A DNA stretch of 64,000 nucleotides from an uncultured Candidatus Saccharibacteria bacterium (GCA_964634365.1 CAZWJU010000002.1:167150-231149); one strand, 5' to 3'; positions 3,980 to 53,420 are shown, counted from the stretch's first letter. Made by a program: numbers and translations. Notes: generated by a model not told the origin, from the sequence alone.

Positions 3980-4058
3980 AAATAGATTATATCAGAAAAA
4001 TGAATAATCGCTTTTTCGCAAATACCATTTGGGTATTTGGATATATTTTTAATGCTGG

Positions 4059-4253
4059 GTCGGGGTGCCGGGTGAGCCGTGTGAGGGAACCCTGTGGGTG
4101 GACGGCGCAAGACCTTTTGAGATATCTTTACGAATATTTGAAGTAAAGTATCCAAAAGGTGTACAGGTTCTGTAAGAACTCGAACCCAGAGTCGCCTCTA
4201 TAATGATCCTCGAATACCGTTTATATACCTGGAGGTTGTTCTTAAAAGTTTTG
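4059..4253 (-). repeat. tRNA-Pro trailer element: degenerate direct copy of tRNA-Pro 3' half (aggcgactctgggttcgagttc) plus exact 14-nt copy of the tRNA 3' end (gtcggggtgccggg at 4059-4072), with a 70% GC segment in between
   Basis: Direct sequence comparison with tRNA-Pro at 4254-4326; spurious 114-aa ORF 4049..4393 overlies it. Confidence 0.6.
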
Positions 4254-4326
4254 TCGGGGTGCCGGGATTCGAACCCGGAGTCGCCTGTTCCCAAAACAGG
4301 AATGTTAGCCGTTACACTACACCCCG
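4254..4326 (-). tRNA. tRNA-Pro (anticodon TGG), no encoded CCA
   Basis: Reverse complement folds as cggggtg/caccccg acceptor, anticodon stem cctgt/acagg with loop tttggga, T-arm ccggg-ttcgaat-cccgg; 73 nt. Confidence 0.8.
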
Positions 4327-4418
4327 ACAAAACTTTCAAAATACATAACTTACACAAAACTAGCTTGTAGGGCTCAGTATAGCCGAGATACATATAATCT
4401 TCAAGTTTTTTATAAATT

Positions 4419-4595
4419 GTGCGGGATAGGAGAATCGGTCACAAATAATTTTTATTACATAAAATTTTCGCGACCCCGACTCAGCGACAAGCACTCGCTT
4501 CGCTCGTCTTGTATACCGCCTCCGTCTTTCGATTCCCCTACCGCACTAAAACACAAAAGCCCGAACACTAACATGTCCGAACTTTGTGTTTTATG
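4419..4595 (-). repeat. tRNA-Gly(GCC) trailer element: hairpin, inverted tRNA-3'-like fragment (gtctttcgattcccctaccgcac on plus strand at 4520-4545), GAGTCGGGGTCGC core (plus strand 4470-4484 as reverse complement), ending in a 19-nt direct copy of the tRNA 3' end (4419-4437)
   Basis: gtgcgggataggagaatcg occurs at 4419-4437 and again as the genuine tRNA 3' end at 4596-4614. Confidence 0.6.
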
Positions 4596-4666
4596 TGCGG
4601 GATAGGAGAATCGAACTCCTGTCTCATCCTTGGCAAGGACGTGTTCTACCACTAAACCAATCCCGC
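4596..4666 (-). tRNA. tRNA-Gly (anticodon GCC), no encoded CCA
   Basis: Reverse complement: gcgggat acceptor, anticodon loop ttgccaa, T-arm ggagttcgattctcc, 3' atcccgc + discriminator A. Confidence 0.75.
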
Positions 4667-5768: not shown

Positions 5769-5992
5769 TATTTTTATATAGGACATGAGTTTTCCACCTA
5801 AAAACTACTAAAATTCTACAAACCATTGAAAAATAAGGATATTTTATTGAAAAAAGACTGTGGATAAATACACAACTTGATGTCCTTTATAAACAATATA
5901 CACGCCTTTATCCACATATCATTGAAAAATAAAGTTTTTTTGTGTATAAAAGGACATTTAAACCTGCTGAACAACAGATACTTTACCTAAAT

Positions 5993-6117
5993 GTGCATCC
6001 GGAGGGATTCGAATATTACATATTCAGGTATTTTTCGCTTTTGTTGCACAAAAGATCGAAAAATCTTTCGAATACCCCCCCCCGCAAGCAAAGAAGTTTG
6101 CTTGCTCGTATGCACCA
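5993..6117 (-). pseudogene. Interrupted tRNA-like locus: 3' end shares ccggagggattcgaa with the neighbouring tRNA-Arg; T-loop appears split by a ~62-nt insertion with duplicated tattcgaa, preceded by a run of 9 G and a gcaagca/tgcttgc stem
   Basis: Reverse complement ...gcggggggggg tattcgaa agattttt...atgtaata ttcgaatccctccggatgcac; acceptor pairs gcatacg/cggatgc with one mismatch. Either an intron-containing tRNA or a decayed duplicate. Confidence 0.3.
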
Positions 6118-6120
6118 ATG

Positions 6121-6192
6121 TGCACCCGGAGGGATTCGAACCCCCAACAACGGTTCCGAAGACCGGTATGATATCCATTTCACTACGGGTGC
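6121..6192 (-). tRNA. tRNA-Arg (anticodon TCG read from loop cttcgga), no encoded CCA
   Basis: Reverse complement gcacccg-ta-gtga..tcat-a-ccggt-cttcgga-accgt-tgtt-ggggg-ttcgaat-ccctc-cgggtgc-a; 72 nt; one 27-43 mismatch. Confidence 0.6.
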
Positions 6193-6270: not shown

Positions 6271-6341
6271 GCGGGATTAGTTAAATGGTATAACTTCAGT
6301 TTTCCAAACTGAAATCAAGGGTTCGATTCCCTTATCCCGCA
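6271..6341 (+). tRNA. tRNA-Gly (anticodon TCC; alternative register would give CCA), no encoded CCA
   Basis: gcgggat-ta-gtta-aatggta-taac-t-tcagt-tttccaa-actga-aatc-aaggg-ttcgatt-ccctt-atcccgc-a; shares acceptor stem with tRNA-Gly(GCC). Confidence 0.65.
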
Positions 6342-6470
6342 CAAATAATTTTATAGGGATAGTGAGCAAACTGCTTTGCTCACGGAAGGGAATCGAAAGA
6401 CTTTTCCATACAAGCGAAGCGAGACGGAAAAGTACCTGGCTATGTAATAGCCGATTCCCTTATCCCGCAC
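6342..6470 (+). repeat. tRNA-Gly(TCC) trailer element: inverted partial copy of the tRNA 3' end with embedded hairpin (gtgagcaaaCTGCtttgctcac), GCGAAGCGAG motif, ending with a 20-nt direct copy of the tRNA 3' end (6451-6470) 10 nt upstream of the cca start
   Basis: ccgattcccttatcccgcac at 6451-6470 versus tRNA 3' end ttcgattcccttatcccgcac at 6321-6341; gggaatcgaaagac and atacaagcgaagcgag shared with the Gly(GCC) trailer. Confidence 0.6.
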
Positions 6471-6480
6471 AAAATGCTCT

Positions 6481-16952: not shown

Positions 16953-17867
16953 TTATTTCTTTGAATGAAATTTTTTATGAACATCGCGAAGCTGCTTGTC
17001 GGTAACATGGGTATATATCTGAGTAGTAGCAATATTTGCATGCCCTAACATCATCTGTACAGAACGTATGTCTGCACCGTTTGAAAGCAGGTCAGTTGCA
17101 AAAGAGTGGCGTATTACATGCGGAGTAACTTTTTTAGAGATACCGGCTTTAATTGCATAGTGTTTTACGATTCTCTCGATTGATCTTTGTGTTAGCCGAC
17201 CACCGCTTTGGCCTTTGTTTCTTGCATGCTGAACAAACATTGGTTCGTCTGTGTCAGTACGCTTTTTCAAATAATCACGAATAGCAGATTTTGCGGAATC
17301 TGATAAAAAAACCACACGAACCTTTTCACCCTTTCCACGAATTGAAAACTCATCTTTAGATAAATCTAAATCTCGATTTAGAGAACACAACTCGGATAAA
17401 CGCAATCCTGTTGAGAAAAATAATTCTAATATAGCTCTATCTCGCAATGATTTTAAATCATCTTTGTCTGGAGCTTTCAGTAGGCGATTTAATTCTTCGA
17501 CAGTTATCAGGTCTAGATGTCTCTCTTTTATTTTAGCGAGCTCTATCGCATCTGGAGAGATTGCTTGTATACCTCGCTTCATTAGATATTTTAAAAACCT
17601 GCGAAGAGCGATTAGGTAGTAGTTTTGAGTGTTTTTCTTCATTGTGGCACTAGACTGTCCACGTACATGTATCCCTGGCTGCCTGTTTAAATACAATCTG
17701 TATTCACGAATTGAATCGTCGGTTATATCTTTTAGACTGTCAGATTTTATAAACTCAAAAAAACGAGACAGGTACCTATCATAATTTGAAACTGTATTGA
17801 GACTTGCTCCACGTTCAATTTCCATGTATTCCAAAAATTGACGTTTTAGATTTTGAACCTCTGACAT
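16953..17867 (-). CDS. xerC: Tyrosine site-specific recombinase XerC/XerD family
   Basis: C-terminal HVIRHSFATDLLSNGADIRSVQMMLGHANIATTQIYTHV contains the R..H..R..Y catalytic box II. Confidence 0.8.
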   Translation of the reverse strand: MSEVQNLKRQFLEYMEIERGASLNTVSNYDRYLSRFFEFIKSDSLKDITDDSIREYRLYLNRQPGIHVRGQSSATMKKNTQNYYLIALRRFLKYLMKRGIQAISPDAIELAKIKERHLDLITVEELNRLLKAPDKDDLKSLRDRAILELFFSTGLRLSELCSLNRDLDLSKDEFSIRGKGEKVRVVFLSDSAKSAIRDYLKKRTDTDEPMFVQHARNKGQSGGRLTQRSIERIVKHYAIKAGISKKVTPHVIRHSFATDLLSNGADIRSVQMMLGHANIATTQIYTHVTDKQLRDVHKKFHSKK

Positions 17868-26491: not shown

Positions 26492-26638
26492 GCCTTGCAT
26501 CATACATTAAAAGGCTGTTTTGGGCAAGATTTTGTATTGTTTTTTTATAAAATATTATTAACAGTTTATACACAATTGTATTTTTATTTTAGGTCTTTTT
26601 ATTATCAATCTGTAGACTATAATGAGTTAACTAAACTT

Positions 26639-27985
26639 ATGATGGAAAACAAACAACTTTGGGAAACATGCTTATCTGAGATTGAACAGTCTGTTTCTAG
26701 GGCAAATTTCAGTACATGGTTTAAAAATACTTCTATTACTAAACAAGATTCTGGAACCGCTTATATTGGTGTCCCAAATGAATTCGTAAAAGATTGGCTT
26801 TTCAATAAATATCACAAGTTAATACTTAAAACTCTTATGAATCATTCAGAAAATGTTCGTGGTATTGAGTTTGTTATAGTAAAACATGATATAAGGCAAA
26901 AAATAGAAGATATAGAGCAGAAATCAATCTTAAACAAAGAACTGCCTCTGGCTGATCTATATATAAACAAAGAAGATAATCTTAATCCAAGATATATATT
27001 TGATGGATTTATTGTTGGAGGGTTCAATGAACTAGCTTTTGCAGCCTCACAAGCTATTGTAAGCAAGCCTGGAACAAGTTATAACCCATTTTTCGTATAT
27101 GGAGGTACAGGACTTGGTAAAACGCATTTAATCCAAGCAATAGGTAATACTATTAAAACAAAATACCCAGAAAAAAGGGTGCATTATATAACTCTTGAAA
27201 AATTTGCTACTGATCTAATAAACTCTTTTCAAACAAATAAAGCCAATTCATTTAAAGAAAAGTATAGAAAATACGATGTTTTGATTATTGATGATATCCA
27301 GTTTGTAGGGAAGATGGAAAAAACTCAAGAAGAACTTTTTCATACATTTAATACTTTTTATGAAAATAATAAACAAATAATATTTTCATCAGACAAACAC
27401 CCTAATTATATCCCGGGATTAGAAGACCGTATGAAGTCTAGATTTCAAGCTGGAATGATTATAGATATAGGCGAACCTGAATATGAATCTAGATTAGCTA
27501 TACTTAAAGCTAAAGTAAAAGAGCAGGGTGTACCTATAAACGATGATGTTGTTGATTTTATAGCTTCTTCTATAAATGGATCTATTCGTGAACTTGAAGG
27601 TAGTCTAAATGCTATAGTTTGCCAAACTAGATTGAAAAATAAAGAGATTTCTTTAACAGAGGCAAAGAATTTGATTAAAAACAATATTAGACCAAAGAAA
27701 AGTGTCTCTATAGACGAAGTGGTTAAAGTAGTTGCTCAGTTTTATAATATAGATGAATCTACTGTATACGAAAAAACACGTAGAAAAGAGATTGTTAAAA
27801 CGAGACAAATGATAATGTACCTTCTTCGTGAAGATTTTAACGTTTCATATCCATTGATAGGTCAAAAACTAGGTGGAAAAGATCACACAACAGTTATACA
27901 TTCTTTCTTGAAGATAAAAGACGATCTAAAAACAAACCAAACATTGGCGCAGGAATTAGAACAGATAAGAGTTATGTTTAAATAA
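26639..27985 (+). CDS. dnaA: Chromosomal replication initiator DnaA (start at MMENKQLWE; the ORF-track N-terminal 48 codons are likely non-coding leader)
   Basis: Walker A GGTGLGKTHL, DnaA signature ...DDIQF, sensor, C-terminal HTH (VKTRQMIMYLLRE...DHTTV). Confidence 0.95.
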   Translation: MMENKQLWETCLSEIEQSVSRANFSTWFKNTSITKQDSGTAYIGVPNEFVKDWLFNKYHKLILKTLMNHSENVRGIEFVIVKHDIRQKIEDIEQKSILNKELPLADLYINKEDNLNPRYIFDGFIVGGFNELAFAASQAIVSKPGTSYNPFFVYGGTGLGKTHLIQAIGNTIKTKYPEKRVHYITLEKFATDLINSFQTNKANSFKEKYRKYDVLIIDDIQFVGKMEKTQEELFHTFNTFYENNKQIIFSSDKHPNYIPGLEDRMKSRFQAGMIIDIGEPEYESRLAILKAKVKEQGVPINDDVVDFIASSINGSIRELEGSLNAIVCQTRLKNKEISLTEAKNLIKNNIRPKKSVSIDEVVKVVAQFYNIDESTVYEKTRRKEIVKTRQMIMYLLREDFNVSYPLIGQKLGGKDHTTVIHSFLKIKDDLKTNQTLAQELEQIRVMFK

Positions 27986-28194
27986 TGTTAATAACTGTTT
28001 AAAACGTGTAGATAAAAATATGATAAATAAATTAAAAACTCAATTTATTTTTATAAACACAAGATTAAACATAAAAATTATATTTTAAATATGATAAATA
28101 AATTAAAAATAACTTTATATATCAAGATTAAATATAGATATCCACATATCCACAGGGCTAATATAAGTATTTAATTAAATAAAAAGAAAATACT
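27986..28194. promoter_or_regulatory. oriC candidate: AT-rich dnaA-dnaN spacer with two tandem DnaA-box-like 9-mers (ATATCCACA at 28138-28155) and a 22-bp direct repeat AATATGATAAATAAATTAAAAA x2 (28018-28040, 28089-28111)
   Basis: Read directly from sequence; canonical position between dnaA and dnaN. Confidence 0.6.
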
Positions 28195-29292
28195 ATGAAT
28201 ATAAATACTACTGCAAAAAAAATAAAACAAGCTATAAACTTTACAGAAAAGATAACTGGTAAAAATCTAACATTACCTATTCTAAGTTCTATTCTCATTA
28301 TAGCTTCAGGTAAAACTCTTAAATTTAGATCAACAAACCTAAATCTAGGTATAGAAGTTGATATACCAGTAAAAGTAGTGAAAGACGGTGTTGTGGCTGT
28401 AAGAGGGGACGTTTTATCTCAAATATTTTCAACAATACAAGACAATGAAGATATAGAACTAAAACAAGAAAATGATAACTTATTGATAGTAACTAAAAAC
28501 AATCAGCTGTTAATAAAATCTAATTCTTATGAAGATTTTCCAACAATACCAGTTGTTTCTGGTGATAAACATATATTGAATTCAAAAAAAATAGTAGAAG
28601 GTATAAAATCAGTAGTTTATAGCTGTTCTATATCAGAAATAAAACCAGAAATGGCTAGTGTTTACATATATTCTGATGATGGAAATCTAGTTTTTGTAGC
28701 TACAGATTCATTTAGACTTGCAGAGAAAAAAATCAAATCAAAACATAGTACAGATTTTTCACCAATATTGATCCCTTTTAAAAATATAAATGAAATATTA
28801 AGGATATTAGAATCAACCTCTGAAGATATAGAGTGTGTAACCAGTAAAAATCAAATATCTTTCATGTTTGATGGTATATACATAACATCAAGGTTAATAG
28901 ATGGTGTTTTCCCAGATTATAAACAAATAATACCTAAAAATTTTACAACCGAAGTTGTTTTACTAAGACAAGATTTTTTAAATGCTTTAAAAATATCTAA
29001 TATATTTTCAGATAAATTTAATCAAATAACTTTCAATATAGACCCAAAAAGTAAAACATGTGAATTAAACGCTAGAAACAATGATATAGGGGAAAATAAA
29101 ACAAAAATTGACGCAACAATAGAAGGTGAACCAATTTCAATGAGCTTCAACTACAAGTATATTATCGATTGTTTTCAATCTATAAATCAAGATAGTCTAA
29201 CTTTAAAATTTAACGGCTCAAACAAACCGCTAATCATAAAAGGTGGTAGTGATCAAACATTTATATATTTAGTTATGCCTATGAATAGATAA
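28195..29292 (+). CDS. dnaN: DNA polymerase III beta sliding clamp
   Basis: 365 aa, three-domain clamp pattern; position after dnaA. Confidence 0.9.
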   Translation: MNINTTAKKIKQAINFTEKITGKNLTLPILSSILIIASGKTLKFRSTNLNLGIEVDIPVKVVKDGVVAVRGDVLSQIFSTIQDNEDIELKQENDNLLIVTKNNQLLIKSNSYEDFPTIPVVSGDKHILNSKKIVEGIKSVVYSCSISEIKPEMASVYIYSDDGNLVFVATDSFRLAEKKIKSKHSTDFSPILIPFKNINEILRILESTSEDIECVTSKNQISFMFDGIYITSRLIDGVFPDYKQIIPKNFTTEVVLLRQDFLNALKISNIFSDKFNQITFNIDPKSKTCELNARNNDIGENKTKIDATIEGEPISMSFNYKYIIDCFQSINQDSLTLKFNGSNKPLIIKGGSDQTFIYLVMPMNR

Positions 29293-35374: not shown

Positions 35375-35734
35375 AAAAATTCTAATATGCTAAGATGTGT
35401 TTAGTTGTAACGACCTCGGTCGTGCAGGAAACATATAAAAGCCAACAAAATATAGGGCTTTTTATTTTTGCACTATTTTCCACACAATGTCCACAAGACG
35501 ATATTTTTTACGTCTAGGCAAGTGCAAAAGTATACGTATACTTATAAAGCGATCAGTTACTAAAGAGGACATAAATCTCTAAGCAATCAGATGAATTTCT
35601 ATATGTATTTGCGTAGGACGTTCTGGTACTATTTATAGACCACTGGGGCTATCCTTCAAAAATATGTTACTTACTAGGCCTAGCCTTTTAAGGATTGTTT
35701 AGAGATTTATGTTTTTTTTGTTTTAAAATAAAAA

Positions 35735-35799: not shown

Positions 35800-35889
35800 A
35801 ATAGTGTTTCAAAAGACACGAAAATTTACTGCTATAAATTTTCTTTGTTTCGCGCCGTCGCACTACACAGAGTCTTTTGAAACACTATT
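35800..35889. repeat. Hairpin element 1: perfect 18-bp inverted repeat AATAGTGTTTCAAAAGAC / GTCTTTTGAAACACTATT enclosing a 54-nt GC-richer loop (..cgcgccgtcgcac..)
   Basis: Read directly; lies in 750-bp gene-free region. Confidence 0.6.
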
Positions 35890-35954
35890 TGCGTTCGTCT
35901 AGATATGTAAATCTACAAGGCAAAGTTAGGCTCCAAGAATTCTAAATACACCAA

Positions 35955-36046
35955 TCCATACTTTTAAAAAGCCTAACGGAACGCGTCGGCGTGAGTTTGA
36001 GGGATTTTTCAGCAGAAAAATACCCGTGCTTTTTAAAAGTTATGGA
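35955..36046. repeat. Hairpin element 2: 18-bp near-perfect inverted repeat TCCATACTTTTAAAAAGC / GCTTTTTAAAAGTTATGGA enclosing a 55-nt loop (..cgcgtcggcgtga..)
   Basis: Read directly; same architecture and similar loop motif as element 1. Confidence 0.6.
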
Positions 36047-36129
36047 TAAAATAAAGTTTTCCGGAAACTGGGCTATGAGTTACTGCGAACTTAATATGGG
36101 TTACAAAAAATAAAAACCCTTACGGGTTT

Positions 36130-37999: not shown

Positions 38000-39001
38000 A
38001 TGAAAAAAATACTGTTCATCTTAGTTTTATTGCAAATTATTACTACCTCCGCCTTTGGGCAGGATGGTAAACCCATTCTGAAATCAGAGTGGTGCGGGAA
38101 AATTACTGGTGACCAGTATGTCACCGCAATTGAAAACGGAGACCCTGACGGGATCTTCAACTGTACAACCACAGAGCTCAAAAAAACCTTTAAGGATGTT
38201 TTGAATTGGGATATTGAGCACAAGTGGAAAGATCAAAATTTAAACCCTATTGTAACTGATCAAGATTTGTACTCATCTTTAAGAGCTTGTTTTTCTGGTT
38301 TATCAGACGCCAGCTTTAAAAAAGGCGAAAGATTAATTGGTTATGTGGCCGAAGATGGAACAATCAAGTTCAAGGCATTCCGATCTAATTATGCCGGAGA
38401 AGAAAGTTACAAGTATAGTGGTTTTGATATTTGGTCACAGTGGTGTGGTAATCCGTTCGCTGACTTGGCTTTTTTGGGAAGCACAGGCACTGTTAAAAAA
38501 GATGCCGTTGTTGCAAGTGCAAATGGTCAGCCGATCATCATAAACAACTATGTTTATGCCGGCAACAATAATGGTAATGGTAACGGTGGAGACGCATTGG
38601 CGCTCAGCACCGCGCCAGCTGCAGATAATGCAGTAGATGCGTCAGTGCCTGCGCCGGTTGTTTATCAGCCGCCTGCACCACGCTATGATCCACCTGCGCA
38701 AGTTGTTTACCAACAACCACAACAACCGGTTGTTTATCAAACAGGTCCTGCGCCATCAAGCGGAGGGGATTGCCCTGAGTGTAAGAAGGGTGTACCTGCA
38801 TGGGTTCCGGTTGCAACTGCGGCCGGTGGGGTTGTGTTAGGGTATTTCCTGAACGAATGGATCGGAAACGGTTCTTCAGGAGGAACCTACTACGGAACTC
38901 CAACGGGATATCCTGTTGATGTCAATGGTGGAAACCCTGTTGGCCCTGGTGGTCCAGTAGACATACCGGGTGGCCCTGTGGACATCTCAGGTGGTGGATG
39001 A
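38000..39001 (+). CDS. Secreted hypothetical protein with signal peptide and Pro/Gly/Gln-rich C-terminal region
   Basis: MKKILFILVLLQIITTSAFG signal; C-terminal PAPVVYQPPAPRYDPPAQVVYQQPQQPVVYQ repeats; terminator at 39008-39040. Confidence 0.5.
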   Translation: MKKILFILVLLQIITTSAFGQDGKPILKSEWCGKITGDQYVTAIENGDPDGIFNCTTTELKKTFKDVLNWDIEHKWKDQNLNPIVTDQDLYSSLRACFSGLSDASFKKGERLIGYVAEDGTIKFKAFRSNYAGEESYKYSGFDIWSQWCGNPFADLAFLGSTGTVKKDAVVASANGQPIIINNYVYAGNNNGNGNGGDALALSTAPAADNAVDASVPAPVVYQPPAPRYDPPAQVVYQQPQQPVVYQTGPAPSSGGDCPECKKGVPAWVPVATAAGGVVLGYFLNEWIGNGSSGGTYYGTPTGYPVDVNGGNPVGPGGPVDIPGGPVDISGGG

Positions 39002-39235
39002 TTTGCAATGTTTTTGTACGACCTCGAAGTCGGGGTCGTACTACTTTTTTAGTTCTTGATTTTGGTTTATGCTAGAATCGAGGCCTAAAACATGTAGTTA
39101 TAAGTAGTTTAATATAGATCTCCTATTAGATCCTCCCATATACGGGTGGGTGGGGACTTAATTGACTTTTAAGCTAAAATGTTGTATAATACATATTATT
39201 AGTTGTCATTTATTAGAGATTAAAAAACAAATTTT

Positions 39236-46930: not shown

Positions 46931-47003
46931 CCTCCCGTAGCTCAGTCGGTAGAGCAGCTCCCTTTTAAGGAGAGGGTCGTAGGTTCGATTCCTACCGGGA
47001 GGA
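46931..47003 (+). tRNA. tRNA-Lys (anticodon TTT), no encoded CCA
   Basis: cctcccg-ta-gctc-agtcggta-gagc-a-gctcc-cttttaa-ggaga-gggtc-gtagg-ttcgatt-cctac-cgggagg-a. Confidence 0.7.
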
Positions 47004-47180
47004 CAAGGTCGAAAAAGTGGACTGCTCCACTTTTGAGTACACTTGTCCTAGACGGAAACATGTTTCGTTAGCAGACGAAACAGTTGAGTCGGGGTCGCAG
47101 AAAAATACGAGCGGCGGCGAGTATTTTATCTGTGACGACACATTCACTCTTAAATAAGGAAAGATTCCTACCAAGATAAT
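47004..47180 (+). repeat. tRNA-Lys trailer element: hairpin aaaagtggaCTGCtccactttt, core GAGTCGGGGTCGC (47086-47098) ...ACGAGCGGCGGCGAGTA..TGTGACGACA, ending with a 10-nt copy of the tRNA 3' region (gattcctacc, 47163-47172)
   Basis: Aligned by eye with the element after tRNA-Arg(GCG) (53146-53300) and after tRNA-Gly(GCC). Confidence 0.55.
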
Positions 47181-53073: not shown

Positions 53074-53145
53074 GGCCCCGTAGTTCAACGGATAGAATGC
53101 AAGATTGCGGATCTTGTGATCCAAGTTCGATTCTTGGCGGGGTCA
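53074..53145 (+). tRNA. tRNA-Arg (anticodon GCG as read; loop ttgcgga), no encoded CCA
   Basis: ggccccg-ta-gttc-aacggata-gaat-g-caaga-ttgcgga-tcttg-tgat-ccaag-ttcgatt-cttgg-cggggtc-a; 72 nt. Confidence 0.6.
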
Positions 53146-53420
53146 CATATAAGAAAAAGACTGGACTGCTCCAGCCTTTTTCTTATATGTGACGGGCGCA
53201 GTGATGTTTTATTAGAGAACAAAACCACGAGCCGGGGTCGAGAAATTTTGCGAGTGGCGACGAGTAAAATATTCGTGACCACAAGGTGGTATAATGAGCA
53301 GACTTAGTAACTTGTGACCACATTAAATCTCTATGTGACGACAAGAAATTGTTTGTAGCCACACTACTAAAAGTCGCGATAAATTTCCATCAGGAAATTT
53401 ACTTGTGATCATACCTAAAA
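53146..53420 (+). repeat. tRNA-Arg trailer element expanded into an iteron-like array: 16-bp-stem hairpin with loop actggaCTGCtccagc (53146-53193), core GAGCCGGGGTCG (53229-53240)...GCGAGTGGCGACGAGTA, then 5-6 copies of (T)TGTGAC(N)ACA-like sites
   Basis: Sites read at 53180(tatgtgacggg), 53271(ttcgtgaccaca), 53311(cttgtgaccaca), 53332(tatgtgacgaca), 53356(ttgtagccaca), 53401(cttgtgatcata); followed by an AT-rich stretch to 53610. Confidence 0.55.

Follow-up and report, generated by a model that had tools for sequence, protein, structure and literature searches.

Repetitive extragenic palindromic (REP) sequences arranged as REPINs or as bacterial interspersed mosaic elements (REP-BIME), which are associated with REP-associated tyrosine transposases (RAYT), and bacterial miniature inverted-repeat transposable elements (MITEs) such as Correia, RUP, and ERIC are short, protein-less, hairpin-forming sequences that lie between genes, often directly behind them, vary in presence among relatives, cluster in tandem, and use an enzyme encoded elsewhere. 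They are in these respects likely counterparts of the sequences that follow tRNA genes in a 64,000-nt stretch of DNA (the window; CAZWJU010000002.1:167150-231149) from an uncultured bacterium whose lineage, judged from orthologues of its CCA-adding enzyme, is Candidatus Paceibacterota/Nomurabacteria within Patescibacteria. As exemplified by the element behind tRNA-Lys(UUU), these sequences of ~100-180 nt form a repeat family with conserved, covarying structure, an association with tRNA 3' ends, closing stems that match their targets, and turnover between relatives. Very probably, this is a dispersed, turning-over family of structured elements specific to the lineage. Unlike REPINs and MITEs with their fixed terminal repeat, the stem here is locus-specific and copies the tRNA 3' end, the interior is a conserved three-way-junction module, and no RAYT or transposase is seen in the loci scanned; the conserved terminal inverted repeats and fixed-length duplication of a MITE are absent, as stems vary by locus and repeats range from 4 to 23 nt.

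Several other systems share part of this design. Integrative elements that target tRNA or transfer-messenger RNA (tmRNA) genes by means of tyrosine integrases, together with their cis-mobilizable derivatives (CIMEs), likewise combine an intact tRNA, an insert, and a repeat running from the T-loop to the 3' end, and they too use tmRNA targets, form tandem arrays, and occasionally carry islands with defense genes. The exact repeats of 14-22 nt at four window tRNAs and of 10 nt at tRNA-Lys conform to this pattern; the integrase does not, since Pfam scans of the open reading frames (ORFs) of the window and of the islands described below give only an Xer-type gene. The inserts here differ further in their small size (~100-180 nt), in an antisense of the repeated core, in covarying helices, in pairing one interior with dozens of tRNA specificities, and in having short-repeat and non-tRNA forms. 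IS200/IS605 elements, including palindrome-associated transposable elements (PATEs) and the TnpB-linked omega or right-end RNAs (reRNAs), are alike in their strand-specific structure, subterminal hairpins, right-end scaffold followed by ~20 nt of target-derived sequence, insertion next to hairpins, and arrays, whereas here there is no TnpA or TnpB nearby and no Rfam match, the target-derived segment pairs with an internal antisense, and the target is directly repeated. Conserved structure interleaved with target-complementary segments that tolerate G.U pairs is also a property of group I and II introns (internal guide sequences, IGS; exon- and intron-binding sites, EBS/IBS) and of the IS110 bridge RNA, although the present elements have no ribozyme core or recombinase gene, lie outside the mature tRNA, and duplicate their target. 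Finally, the primer-binding site of retroviruses and long terminal repeat (LTR) elements is an element-borne complement of the same T-loop-to-3'-end segment (~18-19 nt), but the complement here follows the gene (N73-C74-A) and not the mature CCA unless that is encoded, no reverse transcriptase was found, and the setting is bacterial. We know of no mechanism that explains an exact target copy, a target antisense, and a conserved module in combination, and full-text literature searches found no published description of such elements. Non-autonomous, hairpin-forming repeats are known; the target-matching stem is the unexplained feature and could be new.

The family was recognized through a core motif, GAGYCGGGGTCG, which a preliminary description of the window reported in the trailers of tRNA-Lys, tRNA-Arg(GCG), and tRNA-Gly(GCC). 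Three exact copies are indeed present (4471-4482 on the minus strand, 47086-47097 and 53229-53240 on the plus strand) against 0.04 expected from shuffled sequence, and none of 100 shuffles attains four. Each copy lies 80-115 nt 3' of its tRNA and on the same strand, so that the Gly(GCC) core is inverted in window coordinates only. One mismatch admits a single further site (39027-39038), which had been taken for a related motif in a terminator loop at 39021-39033; this is the 3' arm of an ordinary terminator hairpin (39016..39046, plus strand, holding AAGTCGGGGTCG) behind an ORF at 38000-39001, the covariance model of type B (below) is silent there, and the site is regarded as a chance match outside the family. 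The alignment of the Lys and Arg(GCG) trailers turned out to be longer than described, ~135 nt instead of ~60, and includes compensatory changes (AAAATAC/GTATTTT versus ATTTTGC/GTAAAAT; GTTTCG/CGAAAC versus GTTTT/AAAAC). Both trailers open with the hairpin closed by a CUGC tetraloop that had been noted, and the two regions fold with z-scores of -7.7 and -8.0 relative to shuffles. TGTGACNACA is not enriched over the whole window, with 16 matches against 11.1 expected; where it clusters, at 53274-53415, there is a row of element 3' ends that have lost their 5' parts and that all finish GTGAC + NACA, and a role as protein-binding iteron or DnaA-like box was rejected because the motif is the end of one element helix (P3, below) plus a short target repeat.

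Underlying the core is a module of ~65 nt, here called type B, of which the core is the junction of two helices. In order, it comprises the 5' strand of a closing stem (P1), AAA, a 3-bp helix with a GGA/GA internal loop and a small hairpin, GG, the long P3 hairpin (GGUCG.../...UGACC), and the repeat; GAGYCGGGGTCG is thereby decomposed into GA, the 3' strand of the short helix, GG, and the first five bases of P3. The motif previously given as 'GCGAG...GCGAGTA' is an optional apical insert, CGAGCGNNGCGAG, that is also found at the tip of helix P2 in a second interior (type A, below), and 'TGTGAC-NACA' is the end of P3 followed by the short repeat of the tRNA terminus, P3 adjoining the repeat without a linker. 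Pairing is observed in 86.9% of cells compared with 37-50% in slid controls. In a set of 15 minimal type B copies, the 3-bp helix has GC, CG, or AU as its middle pair, covariation extends to each of the four pairs in the small hairpin, and the fifth P3 pair is an invariant G.U (15/15). Across paired columns G.U outnumbers A.C by 182 to 83, a bias that points to a structure of the sense strand in single-stranded form, whether RNA or single-stranded DNA (ssDNA). A long-stem form of type B, represented in the window by Gly(GCC), has a repeat of 19-20 nt. In the short-stem form (Lys and Arg-GCG) the repeat is merely 4-5 nt, and the leading hairpin is prolonged by the antisense strand so as to take in the final 6-8 nt of the tRNA.

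At the Lys locus, tRNA-Lys(UUU) occupies 46931..47004 (plus strand, as for all features of this locus) and ends A73-C74, its CCA not being encoded; the same sequence is found in a close relative (L266:10602-10675; L numbers denote the relatives and metagenome contigs compared with the window). ARAGORN names both genes 'tRNA-Stop, anticodon tta', while the canonical fold, with a 7-nt loop CUUUUAA and a 5-nt variable loop, gives Lys(UUU). The leading hairpin HP0 (47000..47049) pairs the tRNA 3' end plus 2 nt, AGGACAAG (47000-47007), with its antisense CUUGUCCU (47042-47049) around a terminator-like inner hairpin with the CUGC loop (47013-47034); the Lys leader does not score as a terminator. Within P2 (47051..47090), a GGAA/GA internal loop separates the 3-bp helix (GAC at 47051-53, GUC at 47088-90) from the hairpin GUUUCG..CGAAAC (47062-47081). 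The core GAGUCGGGGUCG (47086..47097) supplies GA of the loop, GUC as the 3' strand of the 3-bp helix, GG of the junction, and GGUCG as the start of P3. P3 itself, GGUCGC...GUGAC with the conserved G.U pair, spans 47093..47136 and bears the apical insert CGAGCGGCGGCGAG (47108-47121). The element closes with GACA (47137..47140), a short direct repeat of the tRNA terminus that forms the 3' strand of a minimal closing stem. Behind it, at 47150..47173, lies the remnant of an older element of type A2, ..UAAGGAAA + GAUUCCUACC, with a 10-nt repeat of the T-loop and T-stem of tRNA-Lys.

What sets the family apart is the relation of the closing stem to the tRNA. The preliminary description suggested a test of whether copies sit precisely at tRNA 3' ends with target-site duplications; it had not noticed the repeat and antisense described here, the second module type, or the modules away from tRNAs. 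Of the seven window tRNAs, five have an exact repeat of their own 3' end 107-181 nt downstream, its length being 19-20 nt for Gly-GCC, 19-22 nt for Gly-UCC, 21/22 nt for Arg-UCG, 14 nt for Pro, and 10 nt for Lys. The interval between tRNA and repeat holds an antisense of the same 3' end, with G.U pairs, as well as conserved hairpins, and antisense and repeat pair to form P1, a long closing stem around the three-way junction whose sequence is particular to each locus. The order behind a tRNA or tmRNA is accordingly an intact gene, an optional terminator-like hairpin, the antisense, the module, and the direct repeat; since the intact tRNA precedes the insert, it remains functional. Between the window and the complete genome of a close relative (CP064973.1; Fpg 86% and RuvB 94% identical), three parts change together, namely the tRNA end (GTCACA/GTCACCA), the antisense (TGTGAC/TGGTGAC), and the repeat (CACA/CACCA), with complete compensation in the outer portion of the leading hairpin. 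At another locus, L118, the repeat extends through an encoded CCA and 4 nt beyond, and duplication therefore took place at the level of DNA. A copy from the processed, mature tRNA is for its part unlikely, as repeats match the gene (A73-C74-A). Nor is the insert a degenerate second tRNA whose T-loop has been interrupted: in the stem, the 5' strand represents the 3' strand's Watson-Crick complement and no copy of the tRNA 5' half (in L110, GAGGG where the tRNA has GGGGG), and the hairpin between the halves is conserved over tRNA types.

The same layout recurs around a different interior, type A, which in the window follows Gly-UCC and Arg-UCG. Type A begins with P1a (5' strand), which is followed by a conserved hairpin (GCAAGCAAA-CUKC-UUUGCUUGC) and by P1b (5' strand), which ends in UCGAA and faces the T-loop; next come AAAG, P2 (CUUUUC...GAAAAG), YACCUG, P3 (a 5-bp stem with a GUA loop), and, without a linker, the repeat. 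In 20 copies 88.3% of cells are paired compared with 38-52% in slid controls, 29 of 41 pairs show double-sided changes, and the observed values are attained by none of 500 shuffles. Helices backed by compensatory change beyond controls, the general mark of a structured RNA, are hence present in both types. A terminator-like hairpin stands ahead of many type A copies, the modules themselves lack a trailing U run, and promoter-like sites are found upstream of the tRNAs. Other observations concern the interiors. A 14-nt mini-hairpin, AAGYG-UACU-CRCGG, recurs in many type A copies (L143:1368-1494, L123:7099-7218, L146, L174), where it splits the tRNA-end repeat right after CGAU/CGAA and has a covarying stem (GCG/CGC, GUG/CAC, AUG/CAU). 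A further interior, type C (…GGUGCCCA…GAGCGRCGGCGAA…), with the same closing-stem logic and weak scores of 35-42 bits with the type A model R1, occurs at L073:6574-6732, L145:5233-5391, and L081:4230-4345. A near-identical 40-nt promoter-like cassette, TTGAAAATAGGTTCTAACTTGGTACAATAGAGACAC, absent from the window, precedes cca, a tRNA, or tRNA-less elements elsewhere (L074:241-280, L079:22-60, L169, L203:1799-1840, L241:229-270, and two copies in L245); it could be either a promoter that is portable or the 5' terminus of 'master' copies of the element.

Across ~2 Mb of relatives plus metagenome contigs, ~160 type A and ~80 type B copies were found, so the family is not confined to three places, and the broader proposal of the preliminary description, a dispersed MITE-like element or conserved RNA module as opposed to att debris, is supported: the module recurs in other genomes and contigs, covaries strongly, and differs in presence among close relatives. 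The covariance model R1, which like the scan pattern contains T-loop-complementary positions, gave 55 type A matches in the window and 80 orthologous cca loci; of these matches, 50 lie no more than 120 nt behind a tRNA on the same strand, and the pattern scan of metagenomes yielded more than 120 contigs among the matches listed. When pooled, 125 of 162 type A matches begin at most 60 nt behind a tRNA (39 anticodon classes) or tmRNA on the same strand; of the others, most are at the edges of contigs or follow tRNA-like genes overlooked by ARAGORN. Type A repeats span T-loop position ~56 to C74 (+/-2 nt) and reach at least 15 nt in 64 of 135 tRNA-adjacent copies. Their lengths have two peaks, at 17-22 and 0-12 nt, and the longer, perfect repeats belong to high-scoring copies and the decayed ones to low-scoring copies, which therefore form a series from intact and young to decayed and old. 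In relatives, 35 of 243 tRNAs have an exact repeat of their own 3' end downstream, against three upstream, and an element beside a tRNA of non-matching sequence was looked for among the copies and not found. Type B was recovered ~30 times by motif and a further 53 times by R2, a model built without the closing stem, in relatives; in the window R2 finds the three core copies and two modules in the spacer between ruvB and the type II secretion system (T2SS) ATPase gene. Many R2 matches in relatives sit behind protein genes, at the tips of 13-35-bp inverted repeats, and some non-tRNA copies have conserved outer arms such as AAUAGUCUU.../...AAGAGCUAUU.

Presence differs even among close relatives. 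L066, whose CCA enzyme is 84% identical, has no element at Gly-UCC or Gly-GCC, and at Arg-UCG it has type B in place of the window's type A. The tRNA-Lys of CP064973.1 is followed by an intact type A2 element, of which the window retains the 3' remnant at 47150-47173 behind its type B copy, which makes the Lys element a replacement specific to the lineage. L272-274 have an empty ruvB spacer (ttttaat|TATGGAT). In the window and in L275/276 this spacer is filled, by different module variants that lie in opposite orientation, and the outer arm ATCCATA/TATGGAT includes the native flank. In L081, L146, and L174, types A, B, and C are mixed in tandem behind a single tRNA, and every copy has the stem specific to that tRNA; nested copies occur, copies are truncated at their 5' ends (window 53284-53415, L088, L130), and a 37-nt P3 is identical in five unrelated contigs behind different tRNAs. 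An assembly artefact is unlikely to account for the repeats because the same sequences appear in independent assemblies. Logan contigs of the same strain (L268-L271), identical in sequence to the window, start inside tRNA-Lys (46950, 46970) or inside a type A element (6428), and the repeats appear to break assemblies. Islands of 1.7-2.5 kb were also noted between tRNA-Gly(UCC) and its trailer elements, one (L081:4600-7110) with an OLD-family nuclease (AAA_15 + TOPRIM), a helix-turn-helix (HTH) protein, and a small ORF, the other (L122:6300-7900) with small ORFs; no integrase was seen in either, the Pfam scan covering the ORFs of the L081 island.

The remaining elements of the window conform to these descriptions. 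Behind tRNA-Arg(GCG) (53074..53146, plus strand), a short-stem type B element occupies 53142..53283 (plus): HP0 at 53142-53193 with GUCACAU/AUGUGAC pairing and an inner hairpin (53161-53174) that scores as a two-way terminator, P2 at 53195-53233, the core at 53229-53240, P3 at 53236-53280, and the repeat CACA at 53280-53283. The array that follows on the same strand (53284..53415), the source of the TGTGACNACA repeats, consists of truncated type B 3' ends finishing (G/A)UGA(C/U)+NA(C/U)A and includes a lone P3 (53374-53408). On the minus strand, tRNA-Gly(GCC) (4595..4666) is followed by the long-stem type B element (4418..4594), with HP0 at 4547-4593, antisense GUGCGGUAGGGGAAUCG at 4530-4546, P2 at 4484-4526, core at 4471-4482, P3 at 4437-4475, and a 20-nt exact repeat of the tRNA 3' end, CGAUUCUCCUAUCCCGCACA, at 4418-4437. 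The type A element behind tRNA-Gly(UCC) (6271-6342) lies at 6343..6473 (plus), its terminal 19-22-nt repeat (6452-6473) ending 8 nt 5' of the cca start codon; that behind tRNA-Arg(UCG) (6120-6192) lies at 5992..6119 (minus), with a terminal 21/22 repeat at 5992-6013. Immediately 3' of the latter, at ~5850-5990 (minus), is a cluster of DnaA-box-like sequences (TGTGGATAA / TTATCCACA) that occupies the same place in many relatives and is 20 kb from dnaA-dnaN (26495-29292). The trailer of tRNA-Pro(UGG) (4253-4326), at 4045..4252 (minus), contains an unclassified insert; it bears the tRNA 3' half in two partial copies, to which the 14-nt exact repeat at 4059-4072 belongs. Similar inserts of ~70 nt with 21-26-nt repeats are found behind tRNA-Pro in relatives (L076:4745-4814, L092), and this may be a further element type. 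Two type B-like modules share the ruvB/T2SS-ATPase spacer, one at 35955..36047 (plus; 47 bits with R2), without a tRNA nearby, at the tip of a 19-bp inverted repeat, its orthologous site being empty in CP064973.1, and a weaker one at 35800..35890 (minus; 19.6 bits) between 12-14-bp inverted repeats. The intergenic stretch at 35400-35720, upstream of ruvB, is ~97% identical in five relatives, far above the neighboring spacer, has no Rfam match, and may be a non-coding RNA or a regulatory region. In all seven window tRNA genes, the base that comes after N73-C74 does not continue a CCA (it is G for Trp and A for the other six), with the full CCA encoded for the same tRNA in some relatives (L111, L115, L118, L129, L137, and L266 compared). 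Only tRNA-Trp, among the window tRNAs, is followed by a plain terminator and by no element; it adjoins the Xer-type gene. Overall, the window is a chromosome segment of 35% GC with dnaA-dnaN, ruvABC, polA, pnp, fpg, the CCA-adding enzyme, and the Xer-type recombinase.

Searches for a known family or for mobilizing machinery have been consistently negative. At gathering score Rfam 15 returns tRNA matches only, and at E<=10 the trailers give nothing beyond spurious hairpin (miRNA-type) matches; the non-tRNA copies have no match, and a known RNA family was rejected over all relevant regions at both thresholds. Self-cleaving ribozymes (hammerhead, twister, HDV-like, hatchet, pistol) are similarly unmatched in Rfam at E<=10, and by eye the junctions (AAA; GG or YACCUG; no linker) do not fit the order of the hammerhead core. 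The group I introns of Patescibacteria tRNAs sit in the anticodon loop (PMC13011429) and are larger, whereas the upstream tRNA here is complete without splicing; an intron in the T-loop, whether group I or archaeal bulge-helix-bulge, was discarded. Pattern scans of viral contigs gave chance matches or none, none of them near a tRNA, and blastn against phage and plasmid collections found no match, so a phage or plasmid origin was likewise set aside. The sole recombinase in the scanned loci is a syntenic housekeeping gene of Xer type (304 aa; 16953-17867, minus strand), a tyrosine recombinase syntenic in nearly all relatives and present also in genomes without nearby elements; by tblastn its homologues lie 3-11 kb from elements and equally in element-free loci, with one stray fragment in L194, and an integrase linked to the elements was rejected. 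Hairpin repeats are present, and the window contains no RAYT-like ORF; target repeats are likewise present, with no TnpA or TnpB ORF in the window and no match to Rfam IS605-orfB or other OMEGA-related families. Of the options in the preliminary description, a miniature integrative element with its own binding sites is consequently the least supported, neither an integrase nor such sites being seen.

Given these observations, the family may best be explained as a non-autonomous, MITE- or REPIN-like mobile family mobilized in trans, with pairing to the target or copying of the target giving rise to the closing stem, a reading to which a probability of roughly 0.55 is assigned. Insertion would be carried out by machinery encoded elsewhere, and, through base pairing with the flanking target or templated copying of it, the target would either supply the closing stem or select it. 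The acting form could be RNA, transcribed together with the tRNA, or else ssDNA of the top strand, similar to that of REPIN or IS200/IS605-type elements. That tRNA and tmRNA 3' ends are the preferred sites, and that insertion keeps the tRNA intact, is the best-supported reading of the distribution; we infer that mobility causes the turnover, that mobilization occurs in trans, and that the stem arises in the way proposed. Several points weigh against such mobility. No transposase, reverse transcriptase, RAYT, TnpB, or element-linked integrase was seen in the window or in ~2 Mb of related loci, and no free, circular, or extrachromosomal form was observed. The type A searches are tilted towards tRNA-type stems by the T-loop-complementary positions of R1 and its scan pattern. 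The repeat is usually perfect while the antisense has G.U pairs and mismatches, unlike the product of simple templated copying. Compensatory change in orthologous copies indicates that structure is maintained over time, which fits a host-useful RNA as well as a selfish element, and transcription of the module is putative because a terminator-like hairpin precedes many copies.

The alternative that the trailers serve the host, as processing, termination, or stability devices for the 3' ends of highly expressed RNAs, is unlikely on balance, yet it accommodates much of the evidence. The antisense would pair with the tRNA 3' strand or with its decoy copy and so aid or control 3' maturation (RNase Z, RNase P, RNase III, CCA addition), or the element might insulate downstream genes such as cca, with spread by duplication or gene conversion and frequent loss. 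Maintenance of structure in orthologous copies, joint covariation of tRNA end, antisense, and repeat, an antisense still complementary to the tRNA where the repeat has decayed, placement exactly at the 3' ends of tRNA, tmRNA, and protein genes, the position of several elements between a tRNA and cca, and the occurrence of some behind a strong promoter-like cassette without a tRNA are all in keeping with host function. However, only a minority of orthologous tRNAs carry an element (~35/243 by repeat) and close relatives differ, and no single element is therefore essential; one and the same position can be filled by several unrelated interiors (A, B, C), which even follow a single tRNA in tandem. 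Many copies are truncated or decayed, no processing role suggests itself for an exact copy of the tRNA end, and the module often has a terminator-like hairpin ahead of it. Classical integrase footprints, with the repeats as attL/attR, a crossover in the T-loop, and inserts of 100-180 nt as CIME-like deletion derivatives mobilized by the integrases of larger islands or phages, are very improbable. Duplication from T-loop to tRNA end, use of tmRNA, and tandem arrays are hallmarks of tRNA-integrating elements and are all seen here, as are two loci with 1.7-2.5-kb cargo islands between tRNA and elements, one encoding the OLD-family nuclease and HTH protein. Against this, no integrase was seen in or beside any island or element, the sole recombinase being the syntenic Xer-type gene, and a double-stranded circle of 110-180 bp is a poor recombination substrate. 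Nor would protein arm sites be expected to include an internal antisense, RNA-like covariation, or an invariant G.U, and a single conserved interior with 39 tRNA specificities, repeats of merely 4-5 nt, related modules at non-tRNA sites, and the lack of matches in phage, plasmid, and viral collections are equally hard to reconcile with it.

Guide-directed insertion overlaps with the preferred explanation, that of a non-autonomous family mobilized in trans, and as a distinct mechanism is rather doubtful. Here the antisense, whether RNA or ssDNA, would be a programmable guide and would pair with the 3' portion of tRNA genes or with other hairpin-prone sites, and staggered cleavage around the paired segment by a nuclease or recombinase supplied in trans would leave a duplication as long as the pairing (4-6 or 19-23 nt). 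Repeat length does track antisense length, with 5-7 nt of antisense and 4-5 nt of repeat in short type B, 17-19 and 19-23 nt in long forms, and ~9 and 6 nt in a nested L081 copy. The repeat is perfect while the guide tolerates G.U, the antisense portion opposite the conserved T-loop (UCGAA) is itself conserved in the manner of a seed, the L118 repeat is a DNA-level duplication, and the same interiors are combined with 39 tRNA specificities. Nevertheless, no candidate effector gene was found, the guide is locked in the closing stem when folded, retargeting intermediates in the form of an element beside a non-matching tRNA are missing, and the covariation is also explicable by selection or gene conversion. 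On the boldest reading, the elements would be programmable and protein-less, the antisense guide selecting the 3' end of any tRNA or tmRNA or other hairpin-prone sites and exactly the paired segment being duplicated, through a new kind of RNA- or ssDNA-guided transposition or fold-back insertion by a host or trans-acting enzyme in these genome-reduced bacteria of the candidate phyla radiation (CPR); such a system would be an unlikely, though conceivable, outcome.

In practical terms, roughly a quarter of the sampled Paceibacteria tRNA genes are followed by a member of this family (50 type A copies per 243 tRNAs in relatives, with type B in addition), annotation misses it, and short-read contigs break in two of its elements, all of which bears on the annotation and assembly of Paceibacteria genomes. 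More broadly, Patescibacteria have very small genomes with few known mobile elements, and an abundant protein-less repeat that varies among close relatives implies that these genomes are less static than assumed and provides strain markers. The presence in each element of an antisense and a copy of its own tRNA 3' end suggests an unusual way to choose or mark insertion sites. Should the antisense pick the target, the family would amount to a compact and programmable means of insertion; should the RNA benefit the host instead, it would represent a new class of tRNA-linked regulatory or processing RNA.

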